The position numbers and the translations under genes are program-made. A stretch of DNA of 64,000 nt from a bacterium (GTDB lineage Bacteria > Sysuimicrobiota > Sysuimicrobiia > Sysuimicrobiales > Kaftiobacteriaceae): contig JBIOWP010000084.1 in assembly GCA_044868695.1 (NCBI GenBank), forward strand, positions 11,659 to 75,658, in the 5' to 3' direction. Shown here in pieces: positions 1,868-64,000 of this stretch; positions within the stretch are counted from its first letter, which is position 1, and the number at the start of each line of letters is the position of its first letter. The notes beneath the pieces were generated by a model. The model saw nothing but the letters and a program-made list of their open reading frames with translations. It had not been told where the DNA came from and ran no database searches.

Positions 1868-4800
1868 CTACTCTTCCTCAAGGTCGGGGTCGCCCGTGGC
1901 CGTGTACGGACAGATGGACGCGAAGGCACAGTACCGGCAGGCGCGGTAGAAGTCAGGCGTCGCGATGAACTGCCCGGCGCGGATCCCGCCGGCGACGCGT
2001 TCAATGATCGCGGCGGTCTTCTCCAGCGCCTCAGCGTCGGGCACGGCGGTGCCGACCAGCACCTGCTGCGGGCCCAGGAAGTGCAGCTCCAGGCGGGTCG
2101 GCAGCGCGCCGTAGACCTCGCGATACGCCAGCGCGTAGAGCGCGAGCTGCAGACTCTCGCGGGCGCGGCGGTCGGCGTCCTTCTGCGCGCGGACGTCGGA
2201 GGTCTTGAAGTCGATCAACACCACTTCGTCCCCCCGCAGGTCCACGCGGTCCCAGCGGCCCTTCACGCGGGTGAGGCCGACCTGGAATGAGAACGGCGCT
2301 TCGACGAACGTAGGCACCCGGCCGCTCGTTTCCTGATATTCAAAGAAGCGCGCCAGGACCTCGCGGCCCTCCGCCATCCGCTGGTCCTCATGTTCCCGGC
2401 TGATGAATCCTTCGTTGACCCACGCCCGCTCGAATGAGCCGACCAGGTCGTCCAGGGTAATGAGCTGCCGGCGCGCTTTGCGGCGATGGTACTCGCGGAT
2501 CGCCTCGTGAATCGCCAAGCCGTAGACGACCCGGTGGTCGCGCAGCAGCGGGACGCGCAGGATGTGCGTGTACTTGTACTTCAGCGGGCACAGATCGTAG
2601 TCGTCGACCTGCCGGTAGGAGAGGAAGATGGGCTGGTCCGGCGGGATGAGCCCCGCCAGCCCCTGCTGCCCGTTGGCCGACGGGGCGTGGCGGTGGATAG
2701 CCTCGACCGGGGACGCATGGAATGCCGTCGTGTCTGCCTTGGGCAGGTCGAGCGCCTCCAGCACGAACCGGCTCACTTTGCGAGCCCGCACGCCGCCGTA
2801 GTCCCGTGCGCTGGTCAGGTACAGCTCGCGCTGGGCGCGCGTCATGGCGACGTAGAATAGCCTGCGTTCCTCTTGGAGGTGGAAGTCGCCGCTGGGCAGG
2901 ATGTCCTTGATCAGCGGCCCCGGCAGGGCGATCGGTTCCCCGCGGTGGCGGGTCGGAAAGCGGTCGGCCACGCAGTTGACTAGGAAGACGATGGGAAACT
3001 CCAGTCCCTTGGCTTTATGGACGGTCAGGATGTTGACCGCGTCCTGATCCACCTCGGCCTCGGCCACCGCGGGATCGTCGCCCGCGGCGATGAGGTCGTC
3101 CATGTGCTTGACGAACTCCGGGACGCGGTCGTAGGCGGCGATCTCCCCGTACCGGGCGACGAGGTCAAAGAATTTGGCTAGATTGGCTACGCGGACCTCG
3201 TCGTCGGCGAGGCCGCTCGTGGCCAGGCGCCGGACATACCCGGTACGGGTCACGAGGTACTCGTAGAGGACTCGGCCGGTCGCATGATCGTTCATCACCC
3301 CGCGCATCTCTTCCAGGTCGTTCAGCAGCTTGCTGATCGCGGCGCGGCTCTCCGGGGCAATTTCTTCGACAAGGTCGGCGGATGCGTCGAGGTGCCGGAA
3401 GACGTGCTCGAGCGTCCGGTGCTTGCGGTCGGCGTAGCTGAGGGCCTTGGCCAGGTCGGTGGCCGAGATTAGGTATAGCGGAGAGACGCCCAGATAGTAG
3501 AGGCTCAGGTTGTCCCCGGGCTTGGCCAGGGCCCGCAGGAAGGCCAGGGCGAGGCGAATTTCCTCCCGATTGTACAGGCCGCGGCTGCCGGTGAACCGGA
3601 ACGGCACCCCCCGCATGTTCAACGCGCGCATGAATGGGTCCGCGTCGGCGTTGCTGCGGACGAGGACCGCGCAGTGTTTGTAGGCACAGTCCCCCCGTTC
3701 GACTTTCTGGGCAATCTGCTGGGCGACCCAGTCGGCCTCCCCGCTGAGCGTGTCCAGGTGCACGTGTTGGGGCGCCTGACCGTCGACCCGCACCGCGCGC
3801 AGGCGTTTGTCGAGGTCGCGCCGGTCTTCCAGGCGGTCGGGATTGTTGTGCTGGATCAGGCGGTAGGCCGTATCGAGAATCCCCTGATGCGAGCGATAGT
3901 TGGTGGTCAACACTACCTGCGCGGCCTGCGGGAAGACGTCGAGGAAGTTGAGGATGTTGCTGATCGCGGCGCCCCGGAACTTGTAGATGGACTGGTCGTC
4001 GTCGCCGACCACGGCAATGTGCTGGGGTCCGTCGTCCCCGACCAGCAGCCGCACCAGCTGGAACTGTGCGTAGTTGGTGTCCTGGAACTCGTCGACCAGG
4101 ATGTACGTGAAGCGTTCCCGGTACTCCCGCAGCACCGCCGGTCGCTCCCGGAGGAGCCGCAGCGTGTGGGTGATGAGGTCGCCGAAGTCGACCAGCCCCT
4201 CTTTGGCCAGCAGTTCCTGGTAGCGTTGGTATGTCAGCGCGAGCTCCTGCTGCTGGCGGGCCAGGTCCGCCAGTTCGCGGTCATCCGGATGGGCCCGGGC
4301 TTCCGCGATGACCCGGTCGGCGTGCGCGCGATACTCGGCCGGACTGGCGTCCTCGTCCTTCGCCCGGGAGATCAACGCGATCAGGGTTTCGATGTATCGT
4401 GTCGGGTCGCCCAGCGGCCGGTAGACGTCGAGCGGAAATTCAAACAGGTGCTCCCGGAAGAAGATGACCTGCTCGGCTTTAGTCAGCACGCGGAAGTCGG
4501 GGGACAGGCCCAGCTCCAACGCATGGTCCCGCAACACCCGGTCGCCGAAGGCGTGGAAGGTGCTGATCCAGACGTCGGTGTACCCGTAGGGCACGAGGAC
4601 ATCGACGCGCTCTTCCATCTCGGCCGCGGCCTTGTCCGTGAAGGTGAGGGCGAGGATCTCCGCGGGCCGCGCTCGCCGGGTGGCAATCAGCCAGGCGATC
4701 CGCCGCGTGATGACCGCCGTCTTGCCGGTGCCGGCCCCGGCGACGATCAGCAGCGGCCCCGAGGCGTGCGTGACGGCCCGCCGCTGCTCGTCATTGAGGT

Positions 4801-9331: not shown

Positions 9332-10270
9332 TCAATCCTTCGGCGCGGCCGGGGTCATGTGGGAGACCGCCGCGGCCACGGCGGCGGCCAGCGCGGCGTT
9401 GGCGCGCAAAAGGGACAGGTTGGCGCGCAGCGAGCGGCCTCCAGTCCTCTCTACCAGCACGGCAAGCAGGTAGGGCGTGAGGTCGCCGCCCCGCACACCG
9501 GCGGCCCGCGCCTGCTCCGCGGCGTCGCGGACGGCGTGGTCCACTTCCTCCGCAGACAGTGCCTCAGAGACGGGAATGGGGTTGGCGATCACCACGCCCG
9601 TCCGCTGGCCAAGAGCGCGTTTTGCGGCGAGGATCGCGGCAGCCTCGTGCGTCGAGGTGATCTGTCGCGGCGCCGGGAACCCGCTGTCCTGCACGTAGAA
9701 GTTCGGAAAGCGGTCTGATCTGTACGCGACCACGGTGACCCCGGCGCTGTCCAGGTATTCGAGCGTTTTCCCGATATCGCAGACGGCCTTGGCGCCGGCG
9801 CAGACGACGGCGACCGGATGCTCGGCCAGCGCCTGCAGGTCTGCGGAGACATCCCAACTCTGCTCCGCGCCGAGGTGGACTCCGCCGATGCCCCCGGTGG
9901 CCACGACGCCGATGCCGACAAGATCCGCCACCGCGACCGTCGCGGAGACCGTCGTCCCGCCGGACGCCGCGGCTGCGGCGGCGACCGGCAGGTCACGGGA
10001 GGCCACCTTCATCGCAGCCGCGGAGATCAACCCGTTAAGTTCGTCCTGCGTGACTCCGACCCGGATCCGTCCGGCGAGGACGGCCACGATCGCTGGCACC
10101 GCGTCGGCCGCGCGGACGATCTCCTCAAGTTCTCCCGCCATCTGCAGGCCGATGGGATGGGGCAGCCCGTGAGAGACGACCGCCGACTCCAGGGCGACGA
10201 CGGGCCGGCGGCGCGCGAGCGCAGCCGCCACGTCCTCGCGGACGTCAATGAGGGGCGGCAATCTGCGCAT
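9332..10270 (-). CDS. psuG: pseudouridine-5'-phosphate glycosidase
   Basis: Indigoidine-synthase-A-like fold with PVVALESAVVSHGLPHP. Start is probably the internal Met of the 317-aa track ORF. Confidence 0.85.
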   Translation of the reverse strand: MRRLPPLIDVREDVAAALARRRPVVALESAVVSHGLPHPIGLQMAGELEEIVRAADAVPAIVAVLAGRIRVGVTQDELNGLISAAAMKVASRDLPVAAAAAASGGTTVSATVAVADLVGIGVVATGGIGGVHLGAEQSWDVSADLQALAEHPVAVVCAGAKAVCDIGKTLEYLDSAGVTVVAYRSDRFPNFYVQDSGFPAPRQITSTHEAAAILAAKRALGQRTGVVIANPIPVSEALSAEEVDHAVRDAAEQARAAGVRGGDLTPYLLAVLVERTGGRSLRANLSLLRANAALAAAVAAAVSHMTPAAPKD

Positions 10271-14888: not shown

Positions 14889-15955
14889 TTCTTCAGCGTC
14901 TTCAGGAACTCCTCAAGCTGCTTCTTGTCCTCTGGGACCTTGATCTTCCCGGCGATGATGTCCTTCCGCAGCGCCTCGAGCCGGGCGGCGATGTCCTGCA
15001 CCATCGCCTTGTTGTAGTTGTTGACCGCATAGCCGACCCCGTTCTCCTTCAAGCCGAATGTGCGGACCCCGGCCTTGTACTGGCCGGCGACGGTGGCCTT
15101 GATCGTCTCGTGCACCGCCACGTCGACCCGCTTCAGCATGCTGGTGAGAATCTGCGCCCGCTGGTCCGGCTTGACCGTCAGGGACTGGTCCGCGTCTACG
15201 CCGATGGCCAGCCGCTTCTTCACGACGGCCGCTTCGAACACGCCGATGCCGGTACCGCCGGACGCGTGGTAGATGATGTCGGCGCCCCGGTCGTACTCGG
15301 CCAGCGCGAGCTCCTTGCCTTTGACAGGGTCGCGGAACGCCTCCCCGGTGGTGCCGGCGTATTCGCTGAACACCTCGATGGACGGCTTCACGTACTTGGC
15401 GCCGGCGATGAAGCCGGCCTCAAACTTCTCGATCAGCGGGATCTTCATGCCGCCCACGAATCCGATCTTGTTCGCCCTTGACTTCAGCGCGGCCGCGGCG
15501 CCCACGAGGAACGATCCCTCGTGCTCCTTGAATAGGAGGCTGACCACGTTGGGCTGGTCTCCGATGAACCCGTCTACGATGGCGAACTTGACGCCCGGGA
15601 AATCCTTGGCCACCCGAGTGATGCTGTCCGTGAACAGGAAGCCGATGCCGAAGATGAGGTCAAATTTCTCACCGGCGAGGAGGCGCAGCAGCTCCTCCCG
15701 GTTCTCGCCCCCGGCCGTGGGCTCGAGGTCGCGGGTCTCGATCCGGCTGCCGAATTCCTTCTGGGCGTTCGACAGGCCGGCATACGCCATGTCGTTGAAC
15801 GACAGGTCGCCGCGTCCGCCGACGTCGTACACGATCCCGACCCGCCACTTCTTGGCCTGGGCGACCGCCGGGGTCCCGGGCAGCGCCCATAGAGTGACCG
15901 CGACCACGACCAGCGCCGCAGCCCCGATGCGCATGCCGATTCTCATCCTCAACAC
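14885..15955 (-). CDS. BMP-family (PnrA/Med-like) ABC substrate-binding protein, nucleoside-binding
   Basis: 356 aa. Signal peptide, then the basic-membrane-protein family fold. First gene of the SBP-ATPase-permease-permease-psuK-psuG operon. The true start is probably an ATG a few codons in (AGGTG RBS). Confidence 0.8.
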
Positions 15956-20707: not shown

Positions 20708-21952
20708 CTACCCTTCAGATTCGCGTTCTGAGGTCACGTCGTCCCCGAGGCCGAATTCGTCATGCAGCGCATTCAGCGCCCGCTGCAGCTGTTCTCGTCC
20801 GACCAGGCACGAGATCGTAGTGTGGGAGTCCGCCGTCTGCAGGATCTCCGTGCCGGCGGCGTGCAGCGCCTTCACCACGCGCGCCATCACGCCCGGCCGT
20901 CCGCGCATCCCGGCGCCGATAATCGAGACTTTGGCGCATGCGCTGCTGGTGTTCACTTGGAATCCGAGTTTGGTGAGTAGGTTGGCCGCCTGTGAGACGG
21001 CTTCCTCCTTGACGGTGAACACCAGGACCTCCGGAAGGAGGTTGATGAGGTCGATGCTGATGCCGTGCTCTGCCAGGGCGGCCAGCGCGCGCAACGGCCT
21101 GGACAGGTCTTCTCCCGGCCCCCGGGCAATTCTGACCTGCACCACGTCGGGCAGGTGCGCCAGCGCCACGACCGGCCGGCCGTCGATGATCGGAACTCCG
21201 AGCTCTTGGCCTTTCACGATGATCGTCCCTCCGTCCGCGCTGCCCATGCGCCGGATGACGAGCTTCACGTTGTGGTCGCGCCCGATGTCCGCTGCGCGGG
21301 GGTGCAGAACCCGCGCCCCCAGCGCCGCCATTTGTGACACTTCGTCGTACGTGATTCGGCGGATCGGCCTGGCCGGCCCCACCAGTTTGGGGTCGGCGGT
21401 CATGATGCCCTCGACGTCTTTGTAGATCTCGACGACCTCAGCGTCCAGCGCCGCCCCCACCGCGACCGCCGTGGTATCACTGCCGCCCCGGCCGAGGGTG
21501 GTGATGTCCCCTTCGGGGGTCACGCCCTGAAATCCGGCGACGACGACCACCTCCCCGCGCGCGAGGTGGCGGCGGGTCCGGCCGGAGTCGATGCTGAGGA
21601 TGCGCGCGTCGTTGAACTCGTCGGTGGTAATGATCCCGGCCTGCGCGCCGGTCAGCGCGATCGCGGGGCAGCCGGCGCGGACGAGCGTGTGGGCGACCAG
21701 CGCGGTGGAAATCACCTCGCCGGTCGACAGGAGGAGGTCGAGCGTACGCGGGTCGATCTCGCCGCCGGCTTCGCGCATCAGTCCCACCAGGGTGTCGGTG
21801 GCGTAGGGATCTCCTTCGCGGCCGATCGCGGACACGACGACCACAATCTGGCTCCCGCGCGCCCGGGTCGCGGTGACGAGGTCAGCGACCTGCGTCCGCC
21901 CCGAGCGCGTCGCGAGCAACGCGCCGCCGAATTTTTGAACAACGACTCCCAT
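20708..21952 (-). CDS. lysC: aspartate kinase with C-terminal ACT domains
   Basis: 414 aa. VVQKFGG, amino-acid kinase fold plus two ACT domains. Confidence 0.9.
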   Translation of the reverse strand: MGVVVQKFGGALLATRSGRTQVADLVTATRARGSQIVVVVSAIGREGDPYATDTLVGLMREAGGEIDPRTLDLLLSTGEVISTALVAHTLVRAGCPAIALTGAQAGIITTDEFNDARILSIDSGRTRRHLARGEVVVVAGFQGVTPEGDITTLGRGGSDTTAVAVGAALDAEVVEIYKDVEGIMTADPKLVGPARPIRRITYDEVSQMAALGARVLHPRAADIGRDHNVKLVIRRMGSADGGTIIVKGQELGVPIIDGRPVVALAHLPDVVQVRIARGPGEDLSRPLRALAALAEHGISIDLINLLPEVLVFTVKEEAVSQAANLLTKLGFQVNTSSACAKVSIIGAGMRGRPGVMARVVKALHAAGTEILQTADSHTTISCLVGREQLQRALNALHDEFGLGDDVTSERESEG

Positions 21953-23821: not shown

Positions 23822-23857
23822 GGGACTCACCTCCACCCTCAACCCTTCGAGACTGAC

Positions 23858-23937
23858 TGGGGACCAGGGACCGGGGACCGGAGAAAGATGGAGTGCCGTT
23901 CGTCTAATCTGGTCCCTGGTCCCGGGTCCCTGGTCCC
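23858..23937. repeat. tandem-hexamer inverted-repeat hairpin element (GGGACC units), between dapB and the M16 peptidase
   Basis: Left arm tggggaccagggaccggggaccgg, 29-nt loop, right arm ggtccctggtcccgggtccctggtccc. The right arm encodes the last residues (GPGTRDQGPD) of the peptidase. Confidence 0.55.
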
Positions 23938-29956: not shown

Positions 29957-29972
29957 GTGCACGGGCCGGGTG

Positions 29973-30040
29973 TCAGGGGTCGGAGGTCGGCAATGGCGCC
30001 GGGTCCGCTCTGACCCCAGACCCCCGACCCCCGATCCCCA
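29973..30040. repeat. tandem-heptamer inverted-repeat hairpin element (GGGGTCG units) inside the 3' end of nrnA
   Basis: Left arm ggggtcggaggtcgg, 20-nt loop, right arm tgaccccagacccccgacccccgatcccc. The right arm encodes the C-terminal tail of NrnA (GIGGRGSGVRADPAPLPTSDP). Confidence 0.5.
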
Positions 30041-31650: not shown

Positions 31651-31663
31651 GACCGCGACTACA

Positions 31664-31750
31664 GGGAACAAGGGATCGAGGGAACGAGGGAACACGGGAC
31701 CGCCCGACGTGGCTTCCTTGGTTCCCTCGTTCCCTGGTTCCCTCGTTTCC
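31664..31750. repeat. tandem-hexamer inverted-repeat hairpin element (GGGAAC units) in the infB-ylxP intergenic space
   Basis: Left arm gggaacaagggatcgagggaacgagggaacacggg, 15-nt loop, right arm ttccttggttccctcgttccctggttccctcgtttcc. Confidence 0.55.
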
Positions 31751-31754
31751 TGAC

Positions 31755-34217: not shown

Positions 34218-34577
34218 TTACCTGTCCTCCGGTCCAGGCGCCCTCAATGGGCGTCCGCCTGACGGAATTCTGATCACACGCGGTTCGCCGGCTCCGGACT
34301 GCACGGCCGCCGCCGATGCGGCAACCTGCAGCAGCTCTGCCTCCAGCGATGCGGGGACCGCGGACTCCAGAGCGTGCTGCAGGCGGCCCTCCCGGACCCC
34401 GGTCGCCACACAGCTCGCCGTCGGACACACATATGCGCCGCGGCCCGACAGCTTGCCGGTCGGATCCACGGCGACGTCGCCCGAGCCGGTCCGGACAACG
34501 CGCACGAGCTCCCTCTTAGGCCGCATCTGCTGGCAGGCCACGCACATCCGCGTCGGGATCTTTCGGGTCCTAGGCAT
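34218..34577 (-). CDS. ylxR: YlxR/RnpM-family RNA-binding protein (DUF448)
   Basis: [28 protein letters not shown] matches the YlxR family. Sits between nusA and infB. The track ORF is over-extended to 34856. Confidence 0.8.
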
Positions 34578-36033
34578 CCGCCTGTGCGGTCTTCTTGCTC
34601 CGCCGCTTCGGCTTTGCCGGCACGGTCCCCTCCGAGCTTTCGGCAGTCCCCAGCGCCTCGGTCGGCGCCGGGTCCGCCACGGCGGGCGCTGCCGAGGGCT
34701 CTGCGTGCTCCACCGCAGGCTCCGCAGTCTCTGCGGGGACATCCGCGGAAGGCGGCGCAGCAGTGGAAAGATCGGCAGCCGGGGTCTCTTCCGCGGCCGC
34801 GCCGGCGGGAGCCGACCCATCGCCGAATGCGGTCTCGGCCTCGGCCGCCGCGGCAACCGGCGCGCCCTCCGCGGGGACGCCCTCCGCGGGCACGCTCTCC
34901 GCAGGCACGCTCTCCGCCGGGACGCCTTCTGCGGGGACGGGAGCCTCCTCTTCAGGCAGGTCCACGAACAGCTTCTTGGCCTCGATCTCCTTGATCTGCG
35001 TTTCGCTCTTGATGTCGATCCGCCAGCCGGTCAGCTTCGCAGCCAGGCGCGCGTTCTGCCCCTCGCGGCCGATCGCCAGCGACAACTGGTTGTCCGGCAC
35101 GATGACCAGCGCGGTCTTCGTCTCCTCATGAATCTCCACCCGCGTCACTTTGGCGGGGCTGAGTGCGCCGGCGACGAAGAGCGCCTGGTCGATGTTCCAC
35201 GGCACGATGTCAATCTTCTCGCCCTTCAACTCATCCACGATGGACTGCACGCGGGTGCCTTTGGGCCCCACGCAGGCGCCGACGGCATCCACGTTCTTGT
35301 CCCGGGACGACACGGCGATCTTGCTGCGGGCGCCGGCTTCGCGCGCGATGGCTTTGATCTCCACGATGCCCTCGTAAATCTCCGGGACCTCCAGTTCGAA
35401 CAACCGCTTCAACAGGCCCGGGTGGGTGCGTGAGACGACGATCTGCGGACCGCGCGTGCCCTGGCGCACTTCCACCACGTAGGCTTTGATCCGTTCGCTC
35501 TGGCGGTAACTTTCCCGCGGGATCTGCTCCGTCGGAGGCAGGACGGCCTCGATCCGGCCCAGATCGAGATAGACGTTCTTCCGCTCGATCCGCTGGACCG
35601 TCCCGGTGACGATGTCGCCTTCGCGGTCGCGAAACTCCTTGTAGACCAGGTCGCGCTCCGCCTCGCGCAACCGCTGGACGACGACTTGTTTGGCGGTCTG
35701 CGCGGCGATCCGCCCGAAGTCGCGGGGCGTGACCTCGATCTCGACCATGTCCCCTACCTTGGCGGTCGGATCCCACTCCCGCGCCTCGTCGAGGGAGATC
35801 TGCGAGTGTTCATCCTCCACGGCCTCGACGATGGTCCGGATCTGGTAGGCCCGCATCTCGCCGGTCTCGCGGTCCACCTCGATGCGCATGTTCTGCGCCG
35901 AGGCGCCGTAGTTCTTCTTGTACGCGGACAGCAGCGCCGCCTCGATGGCCTCGATGATGACCTCTTTGCCGATGCCTTTTTCTTCCTCGATTTGCTCGAG
36001 GGCTTTCATCAGTTCGACGTTCATCCCGCCCAC
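34570..36033 (-). CDS. nusA: transcription termination/antitermination factor NusA
   Basis: 487 aa. NusA N-terminal domain, S1 and two KH domains, then an acidic Ala/Pro/Glu-rich tail with four VPAE(S/G) pentapeptide repeats. Confidence 0.9.
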
Positions 36034-38076: not shown

Positions 38077-39345
38077 ATGGGTCTCCGTGGTGGACGGTGG
38101 ATGCGAGCGGCGCTCGGCCTCGCCGTCCTGCTCGCGTTGCCGGCGTCGGGCGCCGGGCCGGTGACGGTGACGTTCTGGCACGGCATGAGCGGTGTGCTCC
38201 AGCCGGCCCTCGCCGAGCTCACCGCGGACTTCAACACGCTGAATCCCGGGATCGCCGTGACCGCGCAGTATCAGGGGAACTATCCCACCTTGAACCAGAA
38301 GGTGATTGCCGCGGTGGCCGCCGGCAATCCCCCGACCATCACCCAGCTCTTCCCCAACTGGACGGAGGTGCTGATCCGCGCGAATGCGCTGGTCCCTGTG
38401 GCCAATTTCATTCAGGGAGCCGACGGGCTCTCGGCCGAGAGCCTGAATGACATTCTCCCGATCCTCCGGCAGGAGAACACCTTCGGCGGCGTCCTGTGGA
38501 CCCTGCCGTTCAACAAGAGCGTCTACCTCCTCTTCTACAATGCCGACCTGCTGAAAGAACACCAGCAGAAGGTGCCGCAGACGTGGGACGATCTGGCGAG
38601 CGTCGCCAAGGCGCTGACCAAAGAGGACGGCGGGCGGACGGTGCGGTACGGGTTCGTGGTCCGGCCGACCGTCGAGTACTTCACGACCTTTCTGCTGACC
38701 AACGGCGGCGAGTTCTTCCAGCCCGGCGGGAAGGCGTTTGCGTTCAACAGCCCAGCCGGCGTGGAAGCGCTCCAGTACCTGGTCGACCTGATCGCCCTCC
38801 ACAAGGCCGCGTACGTCCTGCCAGGATTCCCAGATGGAGATTTCGGCGCGGGGAAGACGGCGATGTACATTGCCACCAACCCCGGGCTCGCGTTTGCCAA
38901 AGCCGCGGTCGCCGGCAAGTTCACGATCGGCCTCGCCCCGCTGCCGTACAAACGGGTCCGGTCGACGCTGCTCACCGGGACGAACGTCGGAATCATGGCG
39001 CGGGCCACCCCGGAGCAGCAGGCCGCGGCGTGGAAATACCTCAAGTTCATCACCGGGACCACCGGGACCACCCGGTGGTCACTGCGGACGTTCTACATGC
39101 CGGTCCGCCGGTCGGCCCGCGACTCCACGCTGATGCAGGTCTACCTCCGCGACAATCCCGAGCATCAGGCGGGCCTGGACTCACTGGCGTTCGCCCGTAC
39201 GGATCCCAGCATTGCTGAATGGGAAGAGGTGCGGGACATCGTTGCCGGCGCAGTGGAGGAAGCGGTGCTGGGCAAGAAGACGCCGCGCCAGGCGCTGGAT
39301 GAGGCGACCGCGAAGGCCAACCGCCTGCTGGCGCAGCGCAAGTAG
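38077..39345 (+). CDS. ABC transporter extracellular solute-binding protein, family 1 (carbohydrate type)
   Basis: ATG at 38077 preceded by GGCAGGAGGA. Signal peptide MGLRGGRWMRAALGLAVLLALPASGAGP. Confidence 0.85.
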   Translation: MGLRGGRWMRAALGLAVLLALPASGAGPVTVTFWHGMSGVLQPALAELTADFNTLNPGIAVTAQYQGNYPTLNQKVIAAVAAGNPPTITQLFPNWTEVLIRANALVPVANFIQGADGLSAESLNDILPILRQENTFGGVLWTLPFNKSVYLLFYNADLLKEHQQKVPQTWDDLASVAKALTKEDGGRTVRYGFVVRPTVEYFTTFLLTNGGEFFQPGGKAFAFNSPAGVEALQYLVDLIALHKAAYVLPGFPDGDFGAGKTAMYIATNPGLAFAKAAVAGKFTIGLAPLPYKRVRSTLLTGTNVGIMARATPEQQAAAWKYLKFITGTTGTTRWSLRTFYMPVRRSARDSTLMQVYLRDNPEHQAGLDSLAFARTDPSIAEWEEVRDIVAGAVEEAVLGKKTPRQALDEATAKANRLLAQRK

Positions 39346-41057: not shown

Positions 41058-41146
41058 GGGGGAACGCGGGAACGGGGGAACGCGGAAACACGATACGGTC
41101 CGACGTTAGCGCCGCGTTTCCTCGCTTCCACGTTTCCGTGTTTCCG
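41058..41146. repeat. tandem-hexamer inverted-repeat hairpin element (GGGAAC/GGAAAC units) between the convergent sugar permease and bcp
   Basis: Left arm gggggaacgcgggaacgggggaacgcggaaacacg, 20-nt loop, right arm cgcgtttcctcgcttccacgtttccgtgtttccg. The right arm encodes the Bcp C-terminal tail TETRKRGSEETRR. Confidence 0.55.
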
Positions 41147-41606
41147 TTAGTTGTTTCAGCGCCTCCAGCACTGCGGCGCTGTGGCCGCTGACCTGCACCT
41201 TCGGGAACACTTTCACGATCGTCCCGTGCTCGTCGATGATGAACGTCGTCCGCGCGACGCCCCAGTACGTCTTGCCCATCATGGATTTCTCCGCCCAGAC
41301 CCCGTACCGGTTCGCGACGGCATGATCCGTGTCGGCCAGCAATGGGTGAGGAATCCGCAGCTTCTCCTTCCACCTGGCGTGGGACTCCACCGTGTCGGTG
41401 CTCACGCCCAGGATCTCCGCGTGCAGGGTCGTATAGGCCGCGTAGTCGTCACGGAACGCGGTGGCCTCGATGGTTCAGCCGGCCGTGTCATCCCGGACGT
41501 AGAACCACAGCACGACCCTCCTGCCGCGAAAATCCGAGAGTGCCACCCGCCGGCCGTGATCGTCCGTCAGCGTGAACTGCGGAGCCGTTTCGCCTTCTGC
41601 AACCAC
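41106..41606 (-). CDS. Bcp/PrxQ-type peroxiredoxin with in-frame TGA (41475..41477) at the peroxidatic-Cys codon; candidate selenoprotein (PrxU-like), alternatively a nonsense pseudogene
   Basis: Two track ORFs (41475..41723 and 41106..41405) are in the same frame, separated only by the TGA. Joined product: [58 protein letters not shown]...GVSTDTVESHARW...YGVW..MGKTYWGVARTTFIIDEHGTIV. It aligns to E. coli Bcp FYPKAMTPGCTVQACGLRD with the TGA at the Cp position. GTG start at 41606 is preceded by AGGAGGAG. A GC-rich hairpin begins about 10 nt 3' of the UGA. Confidence 0.6.
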
Positions 41607-41674: not shown

Positions 41675-42352
41675 GTGATGCGGCCGGACGAAGTCGCGCT
41701 GATCTTTGATCTCGACAACACACTGCTCATGTCCAACATCGACTTCCTGGCGGTGCGCCACCGCCTGATCGATCTCCTCGAGCATGCGGGGGCGGCCGGG
41801 CCGCCCCGCGACGCGCTGGTGCCCCTCGCACTGCCGGAGCTGGTGGCCCTGGGCGCCGCCGCCAGCGCGTCCCTGGCCGACGCGATGTGGGAGGTCATCC
41901 GGCAGGCGGAGCTTGCCGGCCTGGCCGGCGCGACGCTGGACGCGGCGGCCCCCGTCGTGCTTGAGGCGTTCCGCGCCCGCGGGTTCCAGCTCGCGATGCT
42001 GACCAACAACGCCAGCGAGATGCTGGCGGAGGTGCTTGCCACCTTCGGCCTGGCCCAGTACTTTCGTGTGATGGCCGCCCGCGACACCGTGCCGGCGCTC
42101 AAGCCCGCGCCCGACGGGATCCGCCACGTGCTGGCGCAGCTGGCGGGCATCCGCCGCGCCTACATGATCGGCGACGCCTGGATTGACGCGGGCGCCGCAC
42201 ACGCCGCCGGCGTGAGATTCATCGGCGTCGGTCCCAGGCGGGATACCGTGGAAGCGCGGGGGATTCCAATCTGGGCGTGGGCGGACGATCTGTCGGCGCT
42301 GCTGACGCTGGACCTTGTGGGGAAGGCGCGCGACAGGGAGTCGGAGAGTTGA
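41675..42352 (+). CDS. HAD-superfamily hydrolase (phosphoglycolate-phosphatase-like)
   Basis: 225 aa. Motif I IFDLDNTL, motif III K, motif IV GDAWIDAGAA. Confidence 0.8.
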   Translation: MMRPDEVALIFDLDNTLLMSNIDFLAVRHRLIDLLEHAGAAGPPRDALVPLALPELVALGAAASASLADAMWEVIRQAELAGLAGATLDAAAPVVLEAFRARGFQLAMLTNNASEMLAEVLATFGLAQYFRVMAARDTVPALKPAPDGIRHVLAQLAGIRRAYMIGDAWIDAGAAHAAGVRFIGVGPRRDTVEARGIPIWAWADDLSALLTLDLVGKARDRESES

Positions 42353-42421
42353 AGAGTTGGAAAGTTGAAGAGTCAACCAAAAATTCTCGACTGACGTTCC
42401 AACTCTCCAACTTTTCAACTG
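42344..42421. repeat. tandem-heptamer inverted-repeat hairpin element (GAGTTGA units), AT-rich
   Basis: Left arm gagagttgaagagttggaaagttgaagagtc, 21-nt loop, right arm gttccaactctccaacttttcaactg. Lies between the convergent HAD hydrolase and the Cys-rich small gene. Confidence 0.55.
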
Positions 42422-42430
42422 CAGTTCGCG

Positions 42431-45335: not shown

Positions 45336-45338
45336 CGA

Positions 45339-45360
45339 GAGTTGGAGAGTTGGAAAGGCC
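45339..45360. repeat. half-copy of the GAGTTGG repeat element (no inverted partner)
   Basis: gagagttggagagttggaaagg directly after the fbp stop. Related to the 42344..42421 element. Confidence 0.4.
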
Positions 45361-45361
45361 G

Positions 45362-45516
45362 TTAGTGGTTTTTCTCCCCGTCAGAACCCTTCTCTTCCTT
45401 CAGCACCGCGGTATCGAGGTAGCGGACCAGCGACGGTAGGTACTTCGGGATCAACGCGCCGACGACCACAAAAACCGCCAGGAGTCCAAGGAAGAGATAG
45501 ACGATGGCGAGTTCAT
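45362..45516 (-). CDS. small hypothetical membrane protein (51 aa), downstream of cca
   Basis: Minus-strand ORF MNELAIVYLFLGLLAVFVVVGALIPKYLPSLVRYLDTAVLKEEKGSDGEKNH with one TM helix and a GGGGTGA RBS-like upstream. Too short for the ORF track. May be spurious. Confidence 0.3.
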
Positions 45517-45526
45517 TCACGCCGTA

Positions 45527-51259: not shown

Positions 51260-51284
51260 CGGGTTGGCCTTCTTCCGATAGCGC

Positions 51285-51317
51285 GCGAGCGGGACGTAGG
51301 GTCTACGTCCCGCTCGT
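51285..51317. terminator. strong stem-loop after hup, at the far 3' end of the convergent aspS transcript
   Basis: Perfect 13-bp stem GAGCGGGACGTAG / CTACGTCCCGCTC with a 3-5 nt loop. Followed on the plus strand by gtcacatttcccc (weak T tract). Confidence 0.5.
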
Positions 51318-51542
51318 CACATTTCCCCGCCGTGCCGTGAGGCAGAAGTTCCCGAACCTGCACTAAGCAGGTGGGTGCCCTCCTGGCCGCTCCTGAGATC
51401 CCCGACGTGATGGGGCGTGTCATCGGCGGTCAGAGCCCGGGCTCCCAGTGTATTCGGTGTTGGATCGGAACTATCGGCCCACACGCACACGGCAGGAACC
51501 CTGCTTACGGCCATCGTACGCCCCAGGGCACGAAATTGCAAT

Positions 51543-55026: not shown

Positions 55027-55109
55027 CGGAAACGGGAAGCAGGAAGCCCGGAAACGGGAAACGGGAATTGCCTGCCGGGCCGTTTCCCGCTTCCCGTTTC
55101 CCGCTTCCG
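55027..55109. repeat. tandem-heptamer inverted-repeat hairpin element (GGGAAAC/GGGAAGC units) between convergent genes
   Basis: Left arm cggaaacgggaagcaggaagcccggaaacgggaaacggg, 15-nt loop, right arm cgtttcccgcttcccgtttcccgcttccg. Abuts the amidase stop codon. Confidence 0.55.
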
Positions 55110-60239: not shown

Positions 60240-62444
60240 TCACGAGTGCACCACGCGGTCGACGGAGTACACCTCGGGGACTTTGCCGACCTTCTGCATC
60301 ACCGCGTGCAGCTGCGCGACGTTGCGGATGTCCAGGACGACGTTGATGACCCCGACTTTGTCCTTGCGCACGCGGGCGTTGACCGAGACCACGTTGGTCT
60401 TGCTGTCCGCGATCGCCGCCAGGACGTCTTTCAACAGCCCCACCCGATCGAACGCCGCCACTTCGATTTCCACCTGGTAGGATCCTTCGGGGATAGACTC
60501 CCATTCGACCTCGATCACGCGCTCCGGATGGGTACGCAGCGAGTCCACGTTCGGGCAGTCCTGGCGATGGATCGTGACGCCTCGCCCGCGCGTGACGTAT
60601 CCGACAATGCGGTCGCCGGGCAGCGGCGTGCAGCAGCGCGAGAAGCGCGTCAGTACGTTGTCGGCGCCGCGTACGCGTACGCCTGCGGGCGATGGAGCCG
60701 GCGCGGTGGGCATGGGCGCCGCCGCGGGTGGGGCTTCGGCGGCGCGCGGTTCCCCGCGCAGGGCGGTGATGACGGACAGCAGCGAGATGTCGCCGTTGCC
60801 CAGGGCCGCGAGCAGTTCCTCTTCTGACGGCAGGTCGAATGCCGGCGCGGCGTCCCGCAGCTTGTCCGGCTTCATCAGAGCGGTGAGCGCCCCCAGCCTC
60901 CGGAGCTCCTTCTCCAGCATCTCCCGGCCCCGCTGGATGTTCTCGTCGCGCGCCTCCTTCTTGAACCACTGCCGGATCTTCGTCCGGGCGTTGTTGGTGG
61001 TGACGAACGCCAGCCAGTCCCGGCTGGGGCCCGCGCTGGTCTTGCTCGTCACGACTTCCACGATGTCGCCGGTGCGGAGACGGTACGACAGCGGCACGAG
61101 CCGCCCGCTCACCTTGGCGCCGACGCACCGGTGGCCGACGTCGGTGTGGATCCGGTACGCGAAGTCGACCGGCGTGGCACCGGACGGCAGGTCGATGACG
61201 TCGCCCTTGGGGGTGAAGACGAATACCTCGTTCTGGAAGAGATCCAGCTTGACCGACTGCACAAACGTCCGGGCGTCCTGCAGTTCCGAGTGCCAGTCCA
61301 GCAGGTGCCGCAGCCAGGACAGCTTCTGCTCGAACTCTCGTTCTGCCGGTTTGCCTTCCTTATATTTCCAGTGCGCCGCAATGCCGTGCTCGGCCTCGCG
61401 GTGCATCTGGAGGGTGCGAATCTGGATCTCCAGCGGCTCGCCTTCGTAGAGCACGGTGGTGTGGAGGGACTGGTACCCGCTGGTCTTCGGGTTCGCGATG
61501 TAGTCGTCGAACTCGCCGGGGATGGGCTTCCAGAGGGAGTGCACGACGCCCAGCGCCGCGTAGCATTCCTTTACGTCGTCCACGATGGCGCGGACACCCA
61601 GGCGATCGTAGATGCGGGCCACCGGCTGGCCGGCGTACTTGGGGCGCTGCATCTTGCGCCAGATGCTGTACACGTGCTTCGGCCGGGCGGTGATCTGCTC
61701 GCGGCCCACGCTGAGACCGGCGCGGTTCAACTCCCGGTGGAGGGTCTCGGCCACCTGCTCGAGGAACTGGGCGCGGGTCGCCTCGGCCTGCGCCAGCTGA
61801 CTCTTGATTTCCTGGAACGGCTCCGCCTGCAGGACGCCGAACGCGAGGTCCTCCAGTTCCCGCTGGATTGTCCCGATCCCCAGCCGTTCTGCCAGCGGCG
61901 CGTAGATATCGAGGGTTTCCTGGCTGGTGCGCCGCTGCTTCCACTCGGGCAGGTACTGGATGGTGCGCATGTTGTGCAGGCGGTCGGCCAGCTTGATGAG
62001 CACGATCCTAATGTCGCTGGCCATCGCCAGGAACATCTTCCGCAGGTTTTCCGCCTGCCGTTCCTCACGGCTCATCCACTCAATCTTCCCGAGCTTGGTG
62101 ACCCCGTCCACCAGGGCGGCAATCTCGAGCCCGAAGTGTTCCTGAACTTCTTTGAGCGTGACGCCGGTGTCTTCGGCGACGTCGTGCAGCAGCGCGGAGG
62201 CGACCGTCACGGGGTCCAGCCGCAGATCGACCAGGGTGGAGGCGACGGCGAGAGAGTGGTTGATATACGGCTCCCCGGAGGCGCGGGTCTGCGTCCGGTG
62301 GGCGTGTGCCGCGAAGGCATACGCCGCGCGGATGACATCCAGGTCTGCTTTGGGGAAGTGCTCGCGCATCTTCGCCAGCAGGGCCTGAATGTCGGCCGGC
62401 AGGTCCCGGAACGCGTCCGTTTGTCGAGCCTGCAGCCACTTCAT
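60240..62444 (-). CDS. relA: bifunctional (p)ppGpp synthetase/hydrolase Rel
   Basis: 734 aa. Intact HD hydrolase motif (HDVAED), synthetase domain, TGS and ACT domains. Confidence 0.95.
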   Translation of the reverse strand: MKWLQARQTDAFRDLPADIQALLAKMREHFPKADLDVIRAAYAFAAHAHRTQTRASGEPYINHSLAVASTLVDLRLDPVTVASALLHDVAEDTGVTLKEVQEHFGLEIAALVDGVTKLGKIEWMSREERQAENLRKMFLAMASDIRIVLIKLADRLHNMRTIQYLPEWKQRRTSQETLDIYAPLAERLGIGTIQRELEDLAFGVLQAEPFQEIKSQLAQAEATRAQFLEQVAETLHRELNRAGLSVGREQITARPKHVYSIWRKMQRPKYAGQPVARIYDRLGVRAIVDDVKECYAALGVVHSLWKPIPGEFDDYIANPKTSGYQSLHTTVLYEGEPLEIQIRTLQMHREAEHGIAAHWKYKEGKPAEREFEQKLSWLRHLLDWHSELQDARTFVQSVKLDLFQNEVFVFTPKGDVIDLPSGATPVDFAYRIHTDVGHRCVGAKVSGRLVPLSYRLRTGDIVEVVTSKTSAGPSRDWLAFVTTNNARTKIRQWFKKEARDENIQRGREMLEKELRRLGALTALMKPDKLRDAAPAFDLPSEEELLAALGNGDISLLSVITALRGEPRAAEAPPAAAPMPTAPAPSPAGVRVRGADNVLTRFSRCCTPLPGDRIVGYVTRGRGVTIHRQDCPNVDSLRTHPERVIEVEWESIPEGSYQVEIEVAAFDRVGLLKDVLAAIADSKTNVVSVNARVRKDKVGVINVVLDIRNVAQLHAVMQKVGKVPEVYSVDRVVHS

Positions 62445-62456
62445 CCTTGAGTCACA

Positions 62457-62556
62457 AATCTGTTGAATCTCTTGAATCTGTTGAATCTATTGGATCCAAG
62501 ATTCAATAGATCCAATAGATCCAAAAGATTCGCAGTTCTCTAGATCCAACAGATTC
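62457..62556. repeat. AT-rich tandem-heptamer inverted-repeat element (TTGAATC/TTGGATC units) between the RecQ-like stop and the relA start
   Basis: aatctgttgaatctcttgaatctgttgaatctattggatc | caa | gattcaatagatccaatagatccaaaagattc..tagatccaacagattc. About 30% GC in a roughly 70% GC window. It occupies the relA promoter/leader region. Confidence 0.55.
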
Positions 62557-64000
62557 ACGCCGTTGTTCCCGCGGTCGGTCCGGCTACCGCTTTTAGGATG
62601 TCGGTCAGCGGGCCGAAGGCCCAGCGGCTCACGTCGGCCAGGGCCTGCGCTTCGCGACGGCCTTCGGCGTACCGCAGCGACGTGGTTAAGTCCCGGCGCT
62701 CCTGCCCGGCGGGCGTAATGCGCCACCGCTCTCCATCGTACTCCCGCTGGACCGCCCCTGCCTCGGCCAAGATGTCCAGTGCGATGCCGGCGGTCCTGGG
62801 TGAGACCCCTGCGGCCTCCAGCGCCGTCCGCACCGTTTCATCCGGCCACTGCGCGGCGCCCGCCCGCTCAACTTCTTCGCGGACCACTCGATAGACCGCC
62901 GCCAGGGTCTCCCGATTCGGATGGTCCTGGTCCAGGATCACTGCCGTCGCCGCGAGATCCTCCTTCCGATATAACAACGTCACCGTGGCCTGCCGTCCAT
63001 CCAATCCGGCCGACCCGATGACCTCAAGGAAATCCCCCCGGTGCACCGGCAGCCCGGCCACGGCGGCCTGCCGGATGTCCGCGGGTGCGGCCTCGGCGGT
63101 GAATCCGTCCGACGCCACGAGCACCGAAATCTTGCCGTCCGCAAACAACTGCTCAACGACCTCCCGCACCCGGACGGGGAGTCCTCCGTGGTAATAGGCG
63201 ACCGGCCCGTGTGTCGTGTCGCGCAGCCGGGCCGCGACCGCAACGGCCTCCGCCCTGGTGCCGGCGTAGATCAGCGTCTTCTCCCCGCGGCCGACAATCG
63301 CCGCGAGCGCGGCGTCGCGGTCCACCGTGCCCCGCCGGTCGATCAGCCGGAGGTTTACGCGCAGGAAGGCATCGGTGATGACCTCACCGTGTTCCGGCTG
63401 CGGTCCCCCTCCGGAGGATGCAAACAGGCCCCACTGGGAGACCCCCGGCGCGTGCACGGCCGCCTCCAGCGGGTTATTCTCCATTGTAGGGTCGCAATCT
63501 CCGAGAAGCAAAGACGCGCGCAGTGGGGGCGTCCCGGCCCGCAAGTATTCCGCGCTAGCCAGGACGACGTCCACCGATCCGGCCTGCAGCGCCTGCAGCA
63601 GATGCTGGCGGGCGCGGAAGCGCAGGGCGCCGTGGGCGCGGGCGCAGCGCACGCCGATCTCCCGCAGGCCTGCGGCCAGCCGTTCGTACCACCGGTCCAC
63701 CTGGGACTGCAGAGGAACCGCGATGACCACCGGACCCCGGCCGGAGATCACCCAGCAGGCCGCGGCAATCCCAATGATGGCCCGCCGTCCGCGCCCCGGA
63801 CCGAAGATGCCCCGGATCGGCCGGCCATCGAGGATGGCCTTGATCGCGGCGAATTGGGGATCGCGCAGGCGGCGTCCACGATGCAGGTGGACGCGGACCC
63901 GCTCGATAACGTCCGCCGCCGGCAGCTCCCTCCAGGCGAGTCGAAGAGCCCCGCCCGGGTCAGGCTCATCGGCGGGACCATCGTGGCGCTGGATGTGGAT
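62555..64000 (-). CDS. RecQ-family helicase homologue with degenerate ATPase motifs; partial, 5' end beyond the window
   Basis: Minus-strand frame is open from 64000 to 62555. It aligns to RecQ across the whole core: FRPGQ-like LRDPQFAAIKAILDGRP; Walker A position GPGRGRRA (RecQ PTGGGKSL); DEAH position LEAAVHAPGVSQWG (RecQ VDEAHCISQWG); helicase-C block IYAGTRAEAVAVAARLRD..YYHGGL..VLVASDGF; motif VI EVIGSAGLDG (RecQ QETGRAGRDG). The track ORF 62555..63751 starts at an internal GTG. Confidence 0.7.
   Translation of the reverse strand: MHIQRHDGPADEPDPGGALRLAWRELPAADVIERVRVHLHRGRRLRDPQFAAIKAILDGRPIRGIFGPGRGRRAIIGIAAACWVISGRGPVVIAVPLQSQVDRWYERLAAGLREIGVRCARAHGALRFRARQHLLQALQAGSVDVVLASAEYLRAGTPPLRASLLLGDCDPTMENNPLEAAVHAPGVSQWGLFASSGGGPQPEHGEVITDAFLRVNLRLIDRRGTVDRDAALAAIVGRGEKTLIYAGTRAEAVAVAARLRDTTHGPVAYYHGGLPVRVREVVEQLFADGKISVLVASDGFTAEAAPADIRQAAVAGLPVHRGDFLEVIGSAGLDGRQATVTLLYRKEDLAATAVILDQDHPNRETLAAVYRVVREEVERAGAAQWPDETVRTALEAAGVSPRTAGIALDILAEAGAVQREYDGERWRITPAGQERRDLTTSLRYAEGRREAQALADVSRWAFGPLTDILKAVAGPTAGTTA

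Follow-up and report, generated by a model that had tools for sequence, protein, structure and literature searches.

What an AT-rich palindromic repeat array is doing directly upstream of relA, and whether it is there on account of relA at all, is the question raised near the end of a 64,000-nucleotide stretch of contig JBIOWP010000084.1 (GenBank assembly GCA_044868695.1), referred to here as the window. An earlier reading of the letters alone (the sequence-only reading) had reported AT-rich palindromic arrays at 62457..62556, 42344..42421 and 45339..45360, the first of which was thought possibly to bind a regulator or to contain the relA promoter. All three were recovered by Tandem Repeats Finder (TRF), the first two also by inverted-repeat searches. 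The interpretation favoured here, with a probability of roughly 0.55, is that the element upstream of relA is one of a lineage-specific class of self-complementary tandem arrays at gene ends, which serves as a generic intercistronic or 3'-end hairpin and not as an operator or promoter particular to relA. Members of this class share their architecture, the potential to form a hairpin, placement at gene ends and restriction to one clade, and they are conserved in place and pairing, not in sequence.

The relA array occupies the 110-nt gap between recJ and relA and hence, as the sequence-only reading had it, the place where any relA leader must be. Its unit consists of a heptamer core, TTGRATC, plus 2 nt, repeated with a 9-nt period: TRF finds AATCTGTTG in 4.4 copies (period 9, 87% matches) at 62457-62496 and the inverse unit in 3.4 copies, also with period 9, at 62499-62529, and the inverted-repeat search returns 32-nt arms that are 84% complementary. 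The heptameric build described previously holds for the core of this array, but not for the true periods, which are 9 nt here and 8 nt in the second AT-rich array. The outer 1.5 inverse units (62541-62557) are separated from the right arm by a 9-nt interruption and pair with 62457-62489, according to both the inverted-repeat pairs and the fold. The 64 kb window has 13 matches to TTGRATC, nine of which fall within 62463-62549; the heptamer cores are invariant in the array, and the positions between them vary (unit table). The fraction of guanine plus cytosine (GC) at 62456-62555 is 0.34, the lowest of any 100-nt stretch in the window (mean 0.68, sd 0.055); the second-lowest 100-nt stretch is the AGAGTTGR array at 42345-42420 (the 42352 element).

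On the minus strand, from which recJ and relA are read, the array is predicted to fold into a hairpin of ~45 bp (-52.2 kcal/mol, z = -8.1), a stability that was reached by none of 200 shuffled sequences. The recJ stop codon (62555-62557) lies within the base of this stem, and the relA start codon follows 12 nt past the last repeat base and 8 nt past the predicted stem. Since a ~45 bp hairpin ends 8 nt short of the start codon, expression of relA may plausibly be subject to a generic structural effect, although not one particular to relA. A second assembly (GCA_044870075.1) carries the element unchanged, a third (GCA_044867385.1) minus one 9-nt unit; its occurrence in independent assemblies means that it is not an assembly artefact. 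The upstream gene, which had been called RecQ-like, belongs instead to a RecJ-family fusion with DHH, DHHA1, RecJ_OB, HIRAN and Helicase_C domains; the full orthologue, of 1110 aa, shows the first four of these.

Comparison of orthologous recJ-relA junctions, for which all identities below are those to the window RelA, separates what is inherited from what is not. The junctions fall into the following series: (i) the near-identical strain L082 (~100%) carries the window's array minus one 9-nt unit; (ii) L083 and L084 (92%) have TTGRATC/GATTCAA units as in the window, around an unrelated 31-nt loop; (iii) in L085-L087, L170 and L171 (87%) the units are TTGCGTC/GACGCAA with period 9, AA having become CG in all units on both arms; (iv) L088 and L089 (86-87%) have direct arrays only, with three copies of GGGGACC and then, immediately ahead of the start codon, four of GATTGGGNA or GACCGGGNA, the junction units in 86-87% relatives being GATTGGG or GACCGGG; (v) L169 (88%) has GGGAACGC x4 within the 3' end of recJ, which overlaps relA (ATGA); and (vi) L172 (85%) has a short, non-repetitive hairpin. 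At 83% and below (L001, L002, L090, L091, L096, L174 and those near 70%), the array is absent, and recJ and relA overlap or lie 0 to ~110 nt apart, an arrangement suggestive of ancestral co-transcription of relA with recJ; the two genes overlap or abut in L002, L096, L169 and L174.

The junction arrays of the window, L083 and L086 keep period 9 and have predicted folds of -47 to -55 kcal/mol, the stem in each taking in the recJ stop and ending 0-8 nt before the relA ATG. As read from these junctions, position and 9-nt period are inherited within the clade, unit sequence and AT-richness are not, and the predicted hairpin has been kept through two-sided unit changes in three lineages. MAFFT placed the units of the aligned recJ-relA hairpins in register. 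The pairing register, however, varies among orthologues with their differing unit numbers and loops; formal covariation counting was dropped, as no single column-to-column structure is valid, and compensatory change was read from the sequences and the per-sequence folds. At the amidase/NTP-transferase gap the units differ as well (GGAAACG in the window, GGGATTA in L083, CGGGAACG in L086), and a non-repetitive inverted repeat is found in L088 where the other three carry arrays.

Several further observations were made around these loci. The fusion of RecJ to a HIRAN and a helicase C-terminal domain occurs throughout the clade, in proteins of 1110-1205 aa (for example minus strand 62555-64000 in the window and 6567-9899 in L082), and the gene order secD-secF-recJ-relA is conserved there. 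One-armed arrays are partly translated as a C-terminal tail of RecJ in L088 (9900-9990), L089 (about 9910-9998) and L169 (about 4470-4520), and the unit found at one locus of one genome recurs at other loci in other genomes, as with those of L088, L089 and L169. L174, an 81% relative, has no palindromic arrays; its gap preceding the NTP-transferase gene contains a direct repeat rich in pyrimidines, CCCTTTTCCCTCTTCCTCTTCCCTTTTCCCTCTT, at 15828-15878. Upstream of the window's end, the gene for a family-B DNA polymerase contains an intein (Intein_splicing, in some with LAGLIDADG_3) in L082 (1-2707), L083 (1-1605), L084 (1-2545) and L088 (1-2446), and is inteinless, at 751-752 aa, in L085-L087, L170 and L174.

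The relA array has company within the window. TRF and inverted-repeat scans find a total of seven to eight palindromic tandem arrays with periods of 7-9 nt, G-rich as well as AT-rich (Table 1), built from 7-9-nt units, three to five to an arm, around a 3-30 nt loop; across the window arrays the copies per arm amount to 3.4-5.6 and the period is 7, 8 or 9 nt. The arm-loop-arm architecture that the sequence-only reading regarded as common to the AT-rich and the G-rich elements is thereby corroborated. The second AT-rich array (42338) lies between a convergent HAD-hydrolase gene and a 132-aa gene, its first unit holding a TGA stop, and is predicted to fold about equally on the two strands (-43 and -42 kcal/mol); AGTTGRA has 14 matches in the window against 4.6 expected, a count reached by none of 100 shuffles. 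That single arms can occur alone, as had also been proposed, is borne out by the copy at 45337-45354, which has no inverted partner and no significant fold (z = +0.96). Among the G-rich arrays, the one at 23855 lies between an M16 peptidase gene and dapB, its right arm encoding the last codons of the peptidase, and the one at 31662 has a predicted fold of -65.6 kcal/mol (z = -6.2).

Table 1. Positions in the window of the repeat arrays and of the two genes that flank the recJ-relA array (a dot marks features given without a strand)
Feature	Position	Strand	Basis or remark
Whole palindromic tandem array between recJ and relA, predicted to form a hairpin on the transcribed strand	62457..62557	-	inverted-repeat search, TRF, RNA fold
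Left arm: AATCTG, then TTGAATCTC, TTGAATCTG, TTGAATCTA, TTGGATCCA (9-nt units)	62457..62498	+	TRF, unit table
Apex: perfect 10-nt palindrome TTGGATCCAA	62490..62499	.	read directly; TTGGATC matches both strands
Right arm: GATTCAATA, GATCCAATA, GATCCAAAA, GATTC	62499..62531	+	TRF; inverted-repeat pairs I1-I4
Outer 1.5 inverse units TAGATCCAACAGATTCA, overlapping recJ stop	62541..62557	+	inverted-repeat pairs I5-I8, fold
relA/spoT-family (p)ppGpp synthetase-hydrolase gene	60240..62444	-	HD_4, RelA_SpoT, TGS, ACT_4
RecJ-family fusion gene, 3' part (RecJ, HIRAN, helicase C)	62555..64000	-	list of open reading frames, Pfam Helicase_C
AT-rich array, AGAGTTGA (AGAGTTGR) x3.6, then inverse x2.9, period 8	42338..42430 (repeats 42345-42420)	.	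TRF, inverted repeats
One-armed copy, GAGAGTTG x2.2, no inverted partner, right after FBPase stop	45337..45354	+	TRF
G-rich array, GGGGACC x3.9, 27-nt loop, inverse x4.1, period 7	23855..23937	.	TRF, inverted repeats
Weaker G-rich member, GGGGTC/GACCCC units, in 3' end of DHH/DHHA1 gene	29968..30039	.	
G-rich array, AGGGAACG x4.6, inverse x3.9, period 8	31662..31752	.	fills infB-DUF503 gap
G-rich array, GGGAACGC x3.8, inverse x3.9, period 8	41058..41147	.	convergent ABC permease/AhpC-like genes
G-rich array, GGAAACG x5.6, inverse x4.1, period 7	55028..55109	.	fills convergent NTP-transferase/amidase gap

These arrays also have their placement in common. On a gene map drawn by codon usage and checked against called genes and Pfam hits in related contigs, every array of the window is at a stop codon, either starting 0-12 nt away or overlapping it, and some run into the 3' ends of coding regions; between arrays and downstream start codons, 12-19 nt are left free. 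Among gaps of at least 30 nt, arrays occupy three of five convergent ones (with the one-armed copy in a fourth), four of 16 tandem ones and none of five divergent ones, figures that come from one window and a small sample. The same architecture stands beside genes as unrelated as infB, dapB and those for an amidase and a HAD hydrolase. The 191-nt convergent gap beside the one-armed array contains an uncalled 52-aa open reading frame (45362-45520, minus strand) with good codon usage, a hydrophobic stretch (MNELAIVYLFLGLLAVFVVVGALIPKYL...) and no Pfam match. Other tandem repeats in the window lie inside coding regions: a 15-nt repeat, CGCCCTCCGCGGGGA x5.1, at 34863-34939 is in frame in a NusA-like gene (34570-36033, minus strand) and resembles a coding pentapeptide repeat, and the short arrays CACCGGGAC x2.4 and GCCGGTCC x2.4 at 39051-39117, inside the coding region 38101-39345 (plus strand), are identical in four strain-level contigs and probably represent a different kind of element.

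Within a CSP1-3 (Sysuimicrobiota)-like lineage, the class is confined to one narrow clade. In a census with two detectors of paired arrays, the clade with RelA identities of at least 85% yielded 7.0-7.7 paired arrays per 100 kb (233-257 kb), figures that are underestimates because both detectors missed a long-loop array in L169; 134-171 kb of nearer relatives (RelA 68-83%) yielded none, relA loci of other phyla (1.5 Mb in all) gave 0 to 0.13 per 100 kb, and 30 Markov shuffles of the window none. The long-loop array (about 7205-7330 of L169) consists of GTGATTG x3 right after the stop of a SnoaL-like gene and, ~60 nt on, of ACGAATC-type units x3-4 in inverse orientation. The closest named relative is Candidatus Fervidifonticultor of the phylum Candidatus Sysuimicrobiota (CSP1-3), with 72% RelA identity, and several of the related contigs come from deep-soil 'CRIT' metagenomes. 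A 25-nt pattern for the TTGAATC array (TTGAATCNNTTGAATCNNTTGRATC) has 89 matches on viral contigs (L176-L255), many of them labelled GVMAG, which are pattern matches only.

The arrays turn over rapidly. Strains that are 99.9% identical differ by single units and by the presence or absence of whole arrays; the junction array of L170 is one 9-nt unit shorter, and the amidase-gap array of L087 one 8-nt unit shorter, than that of L086. Directly after the aspS stop, L082 (GCA_044867385.1) carries a 179-nt TTGAATC-type array of 10.7 + 4.3 inverted units (20899-21077), which is exactly absent from the window (about 51540/51541) and from L266 (GCA_044870075.1), with GAT microhomology at the junction; at the same position L086, the 87% relative, has a remnant of one to two units. 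The arrays at 41058, 42338 and 45337 are identical across strain-level contigs, so that polymorphism is seen only in the TTGAATC-type and L086-type arrays. Within arrays, variation falls at the unit-boundary position and one R/Y position, and the unit variants alternate strictly, TRF also giving periods of 14, 16 and 18, which together indicate that the duplicated block comprises two units. An origin of the unit junctions as error-prone additions was considered and abandoned, since duplication of two-unit blocks explains both the alternation and the TRF periods more simply. Replication slippage and copying from arm to arm are well-known mutational routes at microsatellites and quasipalindromes, and the array patterns would fit slippage combined with copying between arms.

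These findings can be accommodated by the following scheme. Slippage of one- or two-unit blocks would create the arms, and template switching between them (quasipalindrome correction) would keep them alike. Transcribed together with recJ and relA, the array may form the ~45 bp hairpin, which could act as a site of transcriptional pausing or partial termination and as a barrier to 3' exonucleases; its compact fold possibly holds the recJ stop near the relA start in a gene pair that ancestrally overlapped. At convergent gene ends, the same structure may serve as a two-way, terminator-like hairpin. A stable predicted stem-loop directly 3' of the stop codon, as in terminators, is present (folds, gene map). 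The recJ-relA junction probably does not terminate transcription efficiently, as the array lies in an ancestral operon and relA, in the relatives, apparently lacks its own promoter. None of the arrays matches an Rfam family at or above the gathering score; the sole match in the window is a 6S RNA gene (RF00013, 79.3 bits, E = 5e-14) at 51320-51501 on the minus strand, between aspS and the HU gene. This 6S gene shows high conservation at every locus of the clade and has behind it an ordinary GC-rich hairpin, with no T-tract, at about 51262-51300.

Several points weigh against the generic-hairpin interpretation. Transcription of the array, termination, processing and coupling are all deduced from sequence. 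The terminator scan of 61800-63200 found no sites, and no T-tract follows the relA stem, where by eye the sequence reads GATTTGTGAC. An argument from strand asymmetry, by which G.U pairs would favour the sense strand (-52 versus -38 kcal/mol for the opposite strand of the relA array), had to be dropped, as the difference between sense and antisense stability across eight co-directional arrays is of mixed sign (-13.6, -5.1, -0.2, +4.5, +4.5, +17.5, -10.1 and -14.1 kcal/mol); it therefore reveals no strand-specific selection on the RNA, and an origin at the level of DNA alone would fit just as well. The direct arrays of L088, L089 and L169, which have no partner arm, imply that the hairpin is dispensable at the junction, and the aspS array, present in the sister strain and lost or never gained in the window strain, implies the same for individual arrays.

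The last three points, from the mixed strand difference onwards, make a neutral or mildly selfish origin a serious rival, possible though rather unlikely on balance. The arrays would then be slippage-prone palindromic microsatellites that accumulate right after stop codons, where insertions are tolerated, and would have no role in termination, stability or relA control. Fast turnover between near-identical strains, extension into the 3' ends of coding regions, the mixed strand difference and the existence of relatives that do without arrays all agree with such an origin, as does the precedent of the analogous Xanthomonas and Nostoc repeats, the function of which is still unknown (PMC4692102). 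It accounts less readily for the persistence of arrays at the same junctions at 87-92% RelA identity with arms that remain complementary despite the change of unit, for the clear space of 12-19 nt before downstream start codons, and for the orthologous convergent amidase gap, where arrays substitute for a conventional inverted repeat instead of being added to it.

Two further origins are improbable. Non-autonomous mobile elements (MITE-like or REPIN-like), with a transposase encoded elsewhere in the genome, would explain why one unit type recurs at several places: TTGAATC units at recJ-relA and after aspS in L082, AGAGTTGR at 42345 and 45337, and the GGGAACG type at 31662, at 41058, in the L086 amidase gap and at the L169 recJ end. 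The 179-nt aspS array, whose presence varies among near-identical strains and whose junction shows a 3-nt GAT repeat, could be taken for an insertion, but at this one junction the repeat is equally explicable as deletion microhomology, and the one- to two-unit remnant in the 87% relative favours expansion or deletion in place. Moreover, there are no conserved termini or inverted terminal repeats besides the units themselves, the copies of a family vary in unit number, loop and flanks, arrays are kept at orthologous junctions through speciation, and neither the window nor its flanks show a transposase. Alternatively, and just as doubtfully, the arrays could be actively written and homogenised by a lineage-specific activity, for instance a hairpin-directed template-switching or repeat-adding enzyme, which would place a small set of units at gene ends and hold the two arms in match, and work as hairpin attenuators tunable by copy number. 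If so, one-unit differences between strains would set read-through or translational coupling into relA and other downstream genes, and the arrays would be contingency loci for core housekeeping operons.

Control specific to relA, in which the AT-rich heptamers are regulator binding sites or part of a relA promoter or leader, was the proposal of the sequence-only reading and is very unlikely. Its appeal lies in the position of the window's lowest-GC stretch directly upstream of relA, in the invariant heptamer cores with variable positions between them, as expected of contacted motifs, and in the modest reporter effects described in a preprint for AT-rich heptamer arrays by the start codons of Nostoc recF and recO (bioRxiv 10.1101/2022.06.06.494920). 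The variable positions are nevertheless explained by duplication of two-unit blocks, given the strict alternation of variants, and neither the junction unit nor its AT-richness is conserved (TTGCGTC, GATTGGG, GACCGGG or GGGAACGC in relatives). A consensus scan found no sigma-70-like promoter site for relA; the TTGGAT and TAGATT hexamers that had been proposed as its boxes do exist, but on the relA strand TTGRAT (TTGGAT included) and TAGATT are spaced by 11, 20 or 29 nt and never by 15-19 nt. Relatives at 83% and below, in which recJ overlaps or adjoins relA, lack the array; the sister strain has another TTGAATC-type array behind aspS; and the same architecture flanks unrelated genes. Of the earlier suggestion that the element controls relA, the part that stands is structural, an element at the leader of relA; a regulator array or promoter specific to relA is not supported, and such arrays should, as a caution for annotation, not be read as gene-specific operators. 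Action through G-quadruplexes or i-motifs, as proposed for the G-rich heptamers of Xanthomonas and Nostoc, is hardly credible, for although most of the window's arrays contain one GGG or GGGG in each of at least four units, and GGGAATC repeats form quadruplexes in vitro (PMC4692102), the relA array, the 42345 array and the CGTTGAAA array of L086 have no G-runs and yet the same architecture and placement, which makes arm complementarity, and not G-runs, the common denominator. Iterons, CRISPR and a replication origin were dismissed, the units being too short, spacers absent and the arrays dispersed at gene ends.

The link to relA is incidental, and it is the class, its concerted evolution and its restriction to one clade that merit follow-up. 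The graded series of orthologous junctions offers a system for studying the concerted evolution of palindromic microsatellites and could show whether such arrays tune operon expression.

Among known systems, intrinsic (Rho-independent) terminators likewise place a stable stem-loop right after a stop codon, and the arrays in convergent gaps could act in both directions; in contrast to such terminators, the arrays have no T-tract, possess stems of 25-45 bp with periodic mismatches, include the AT-rich relA copy and in several cases lie inside conserved operons. Template-switch mutagenesis at quasipalindromes and slippage at microsatellites, reportedly described by Ripley (1982) and by Dutra and Lovett (2006), would explain copying between arms and the gain and loss of units, but these are mutational mechanisms and not a family of elements. 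REP/BIME elements of enterobacteria are extragenic palindromes that lie, as the arrays do, after stop codons or inside operons; there they shield the mRNA upstream and determine how strongly adjacent cistrons are expressed relative to each other, and Newbury, Higgins and co-workers are said to have described them in 1987 as intercistronic 3' hairpins at malE-malF. A REP unit is a 20-40 nt imperfect palindrome, of a single conserved sequence in any one genome and associated with RAYT transposases, whereas the arms described here, in the window and about 250 kb of related loci, are made of 7-9-nt tandem units of several families.

The closest known analogues appear to be the GGGAATC repeats of Xanthomonas and the heptamer repeats of cyanobacteria. 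GGGAATC heptamer arrays number about 186 per Xanthomonas genome, with 70-75 convergent pairs and 89-93% intergenic location (PMC4692102, Rehm et al. 2015); they typically comprise ~4 copies, lie near the ends of open reading frames, are under-represented between divergent ones and are mostly transcribed, and among close species their location is kept and their length and sequence vary, their function being unknown (PMC4692102). Short-unit arrays of ~4 copies, convergent stem-loop pairs, placement at gene ends and rarity in divergent gaps are common to both systems. The arrays of the CSP1-3-like phylum differ in that one genome combines several unit families with periods of 7, 8 and 9 nt, that some units are AT-rich and unable to form quadruplexes, that the arrays frequently touch or overlap the stop codon, and that units change in concert on both arms; TTGRATC and AGAGTTGR have no G-runs, and GGGAACG, GGGGACC and GGAAACG are similar, not identical, to GGGAATC. 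In cyanobacteria, 7-bp repeats form hairpins between hupS and hupL and upstream of hoxW, for which transcript stabilisation, termination and translational coupling have been proposed (PMC2670836), and in Nostoc, AT-rich TTTTGAA and GACYAAT arrays lie beside start codons, with modest reporter effects (bioRxiv 10.1101/2022.06.06.494920, a preprint), few of the heptamer arrays being paired (PMC4692102). These STRR and heptamer arrays resemble the ones described here in their hairpin-forming short tandem units within intercistronic gaps and in AT-rich units that abut start codons. The units and the lineage differ, the closest named relative being no heterocystous cyanobacterium but a member of Candidatus Sysuimicrobiota, and paired arms are the rule in this clade, whose arrays are known from sequence alone. 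With the defining sequence features of the Xanthomonas and STRR families and the T-tract all lacking, the arrays appear to belong to neither named family. Heptamer arrays, often in inverted pairs, are abundant in Xanthomonas and filamentous cyanobacteria, and their function has been unsolved for decades; an uncultured deep-soil CSP1-3-like clade now provides a third, unrelated lineage with the same architecture and with several unit families, AT-rich ones included. This separates the candidate properties from one another: quadruplex potential and a fixed binding motif are not shared, arm complementarity and placement at gene ends are.

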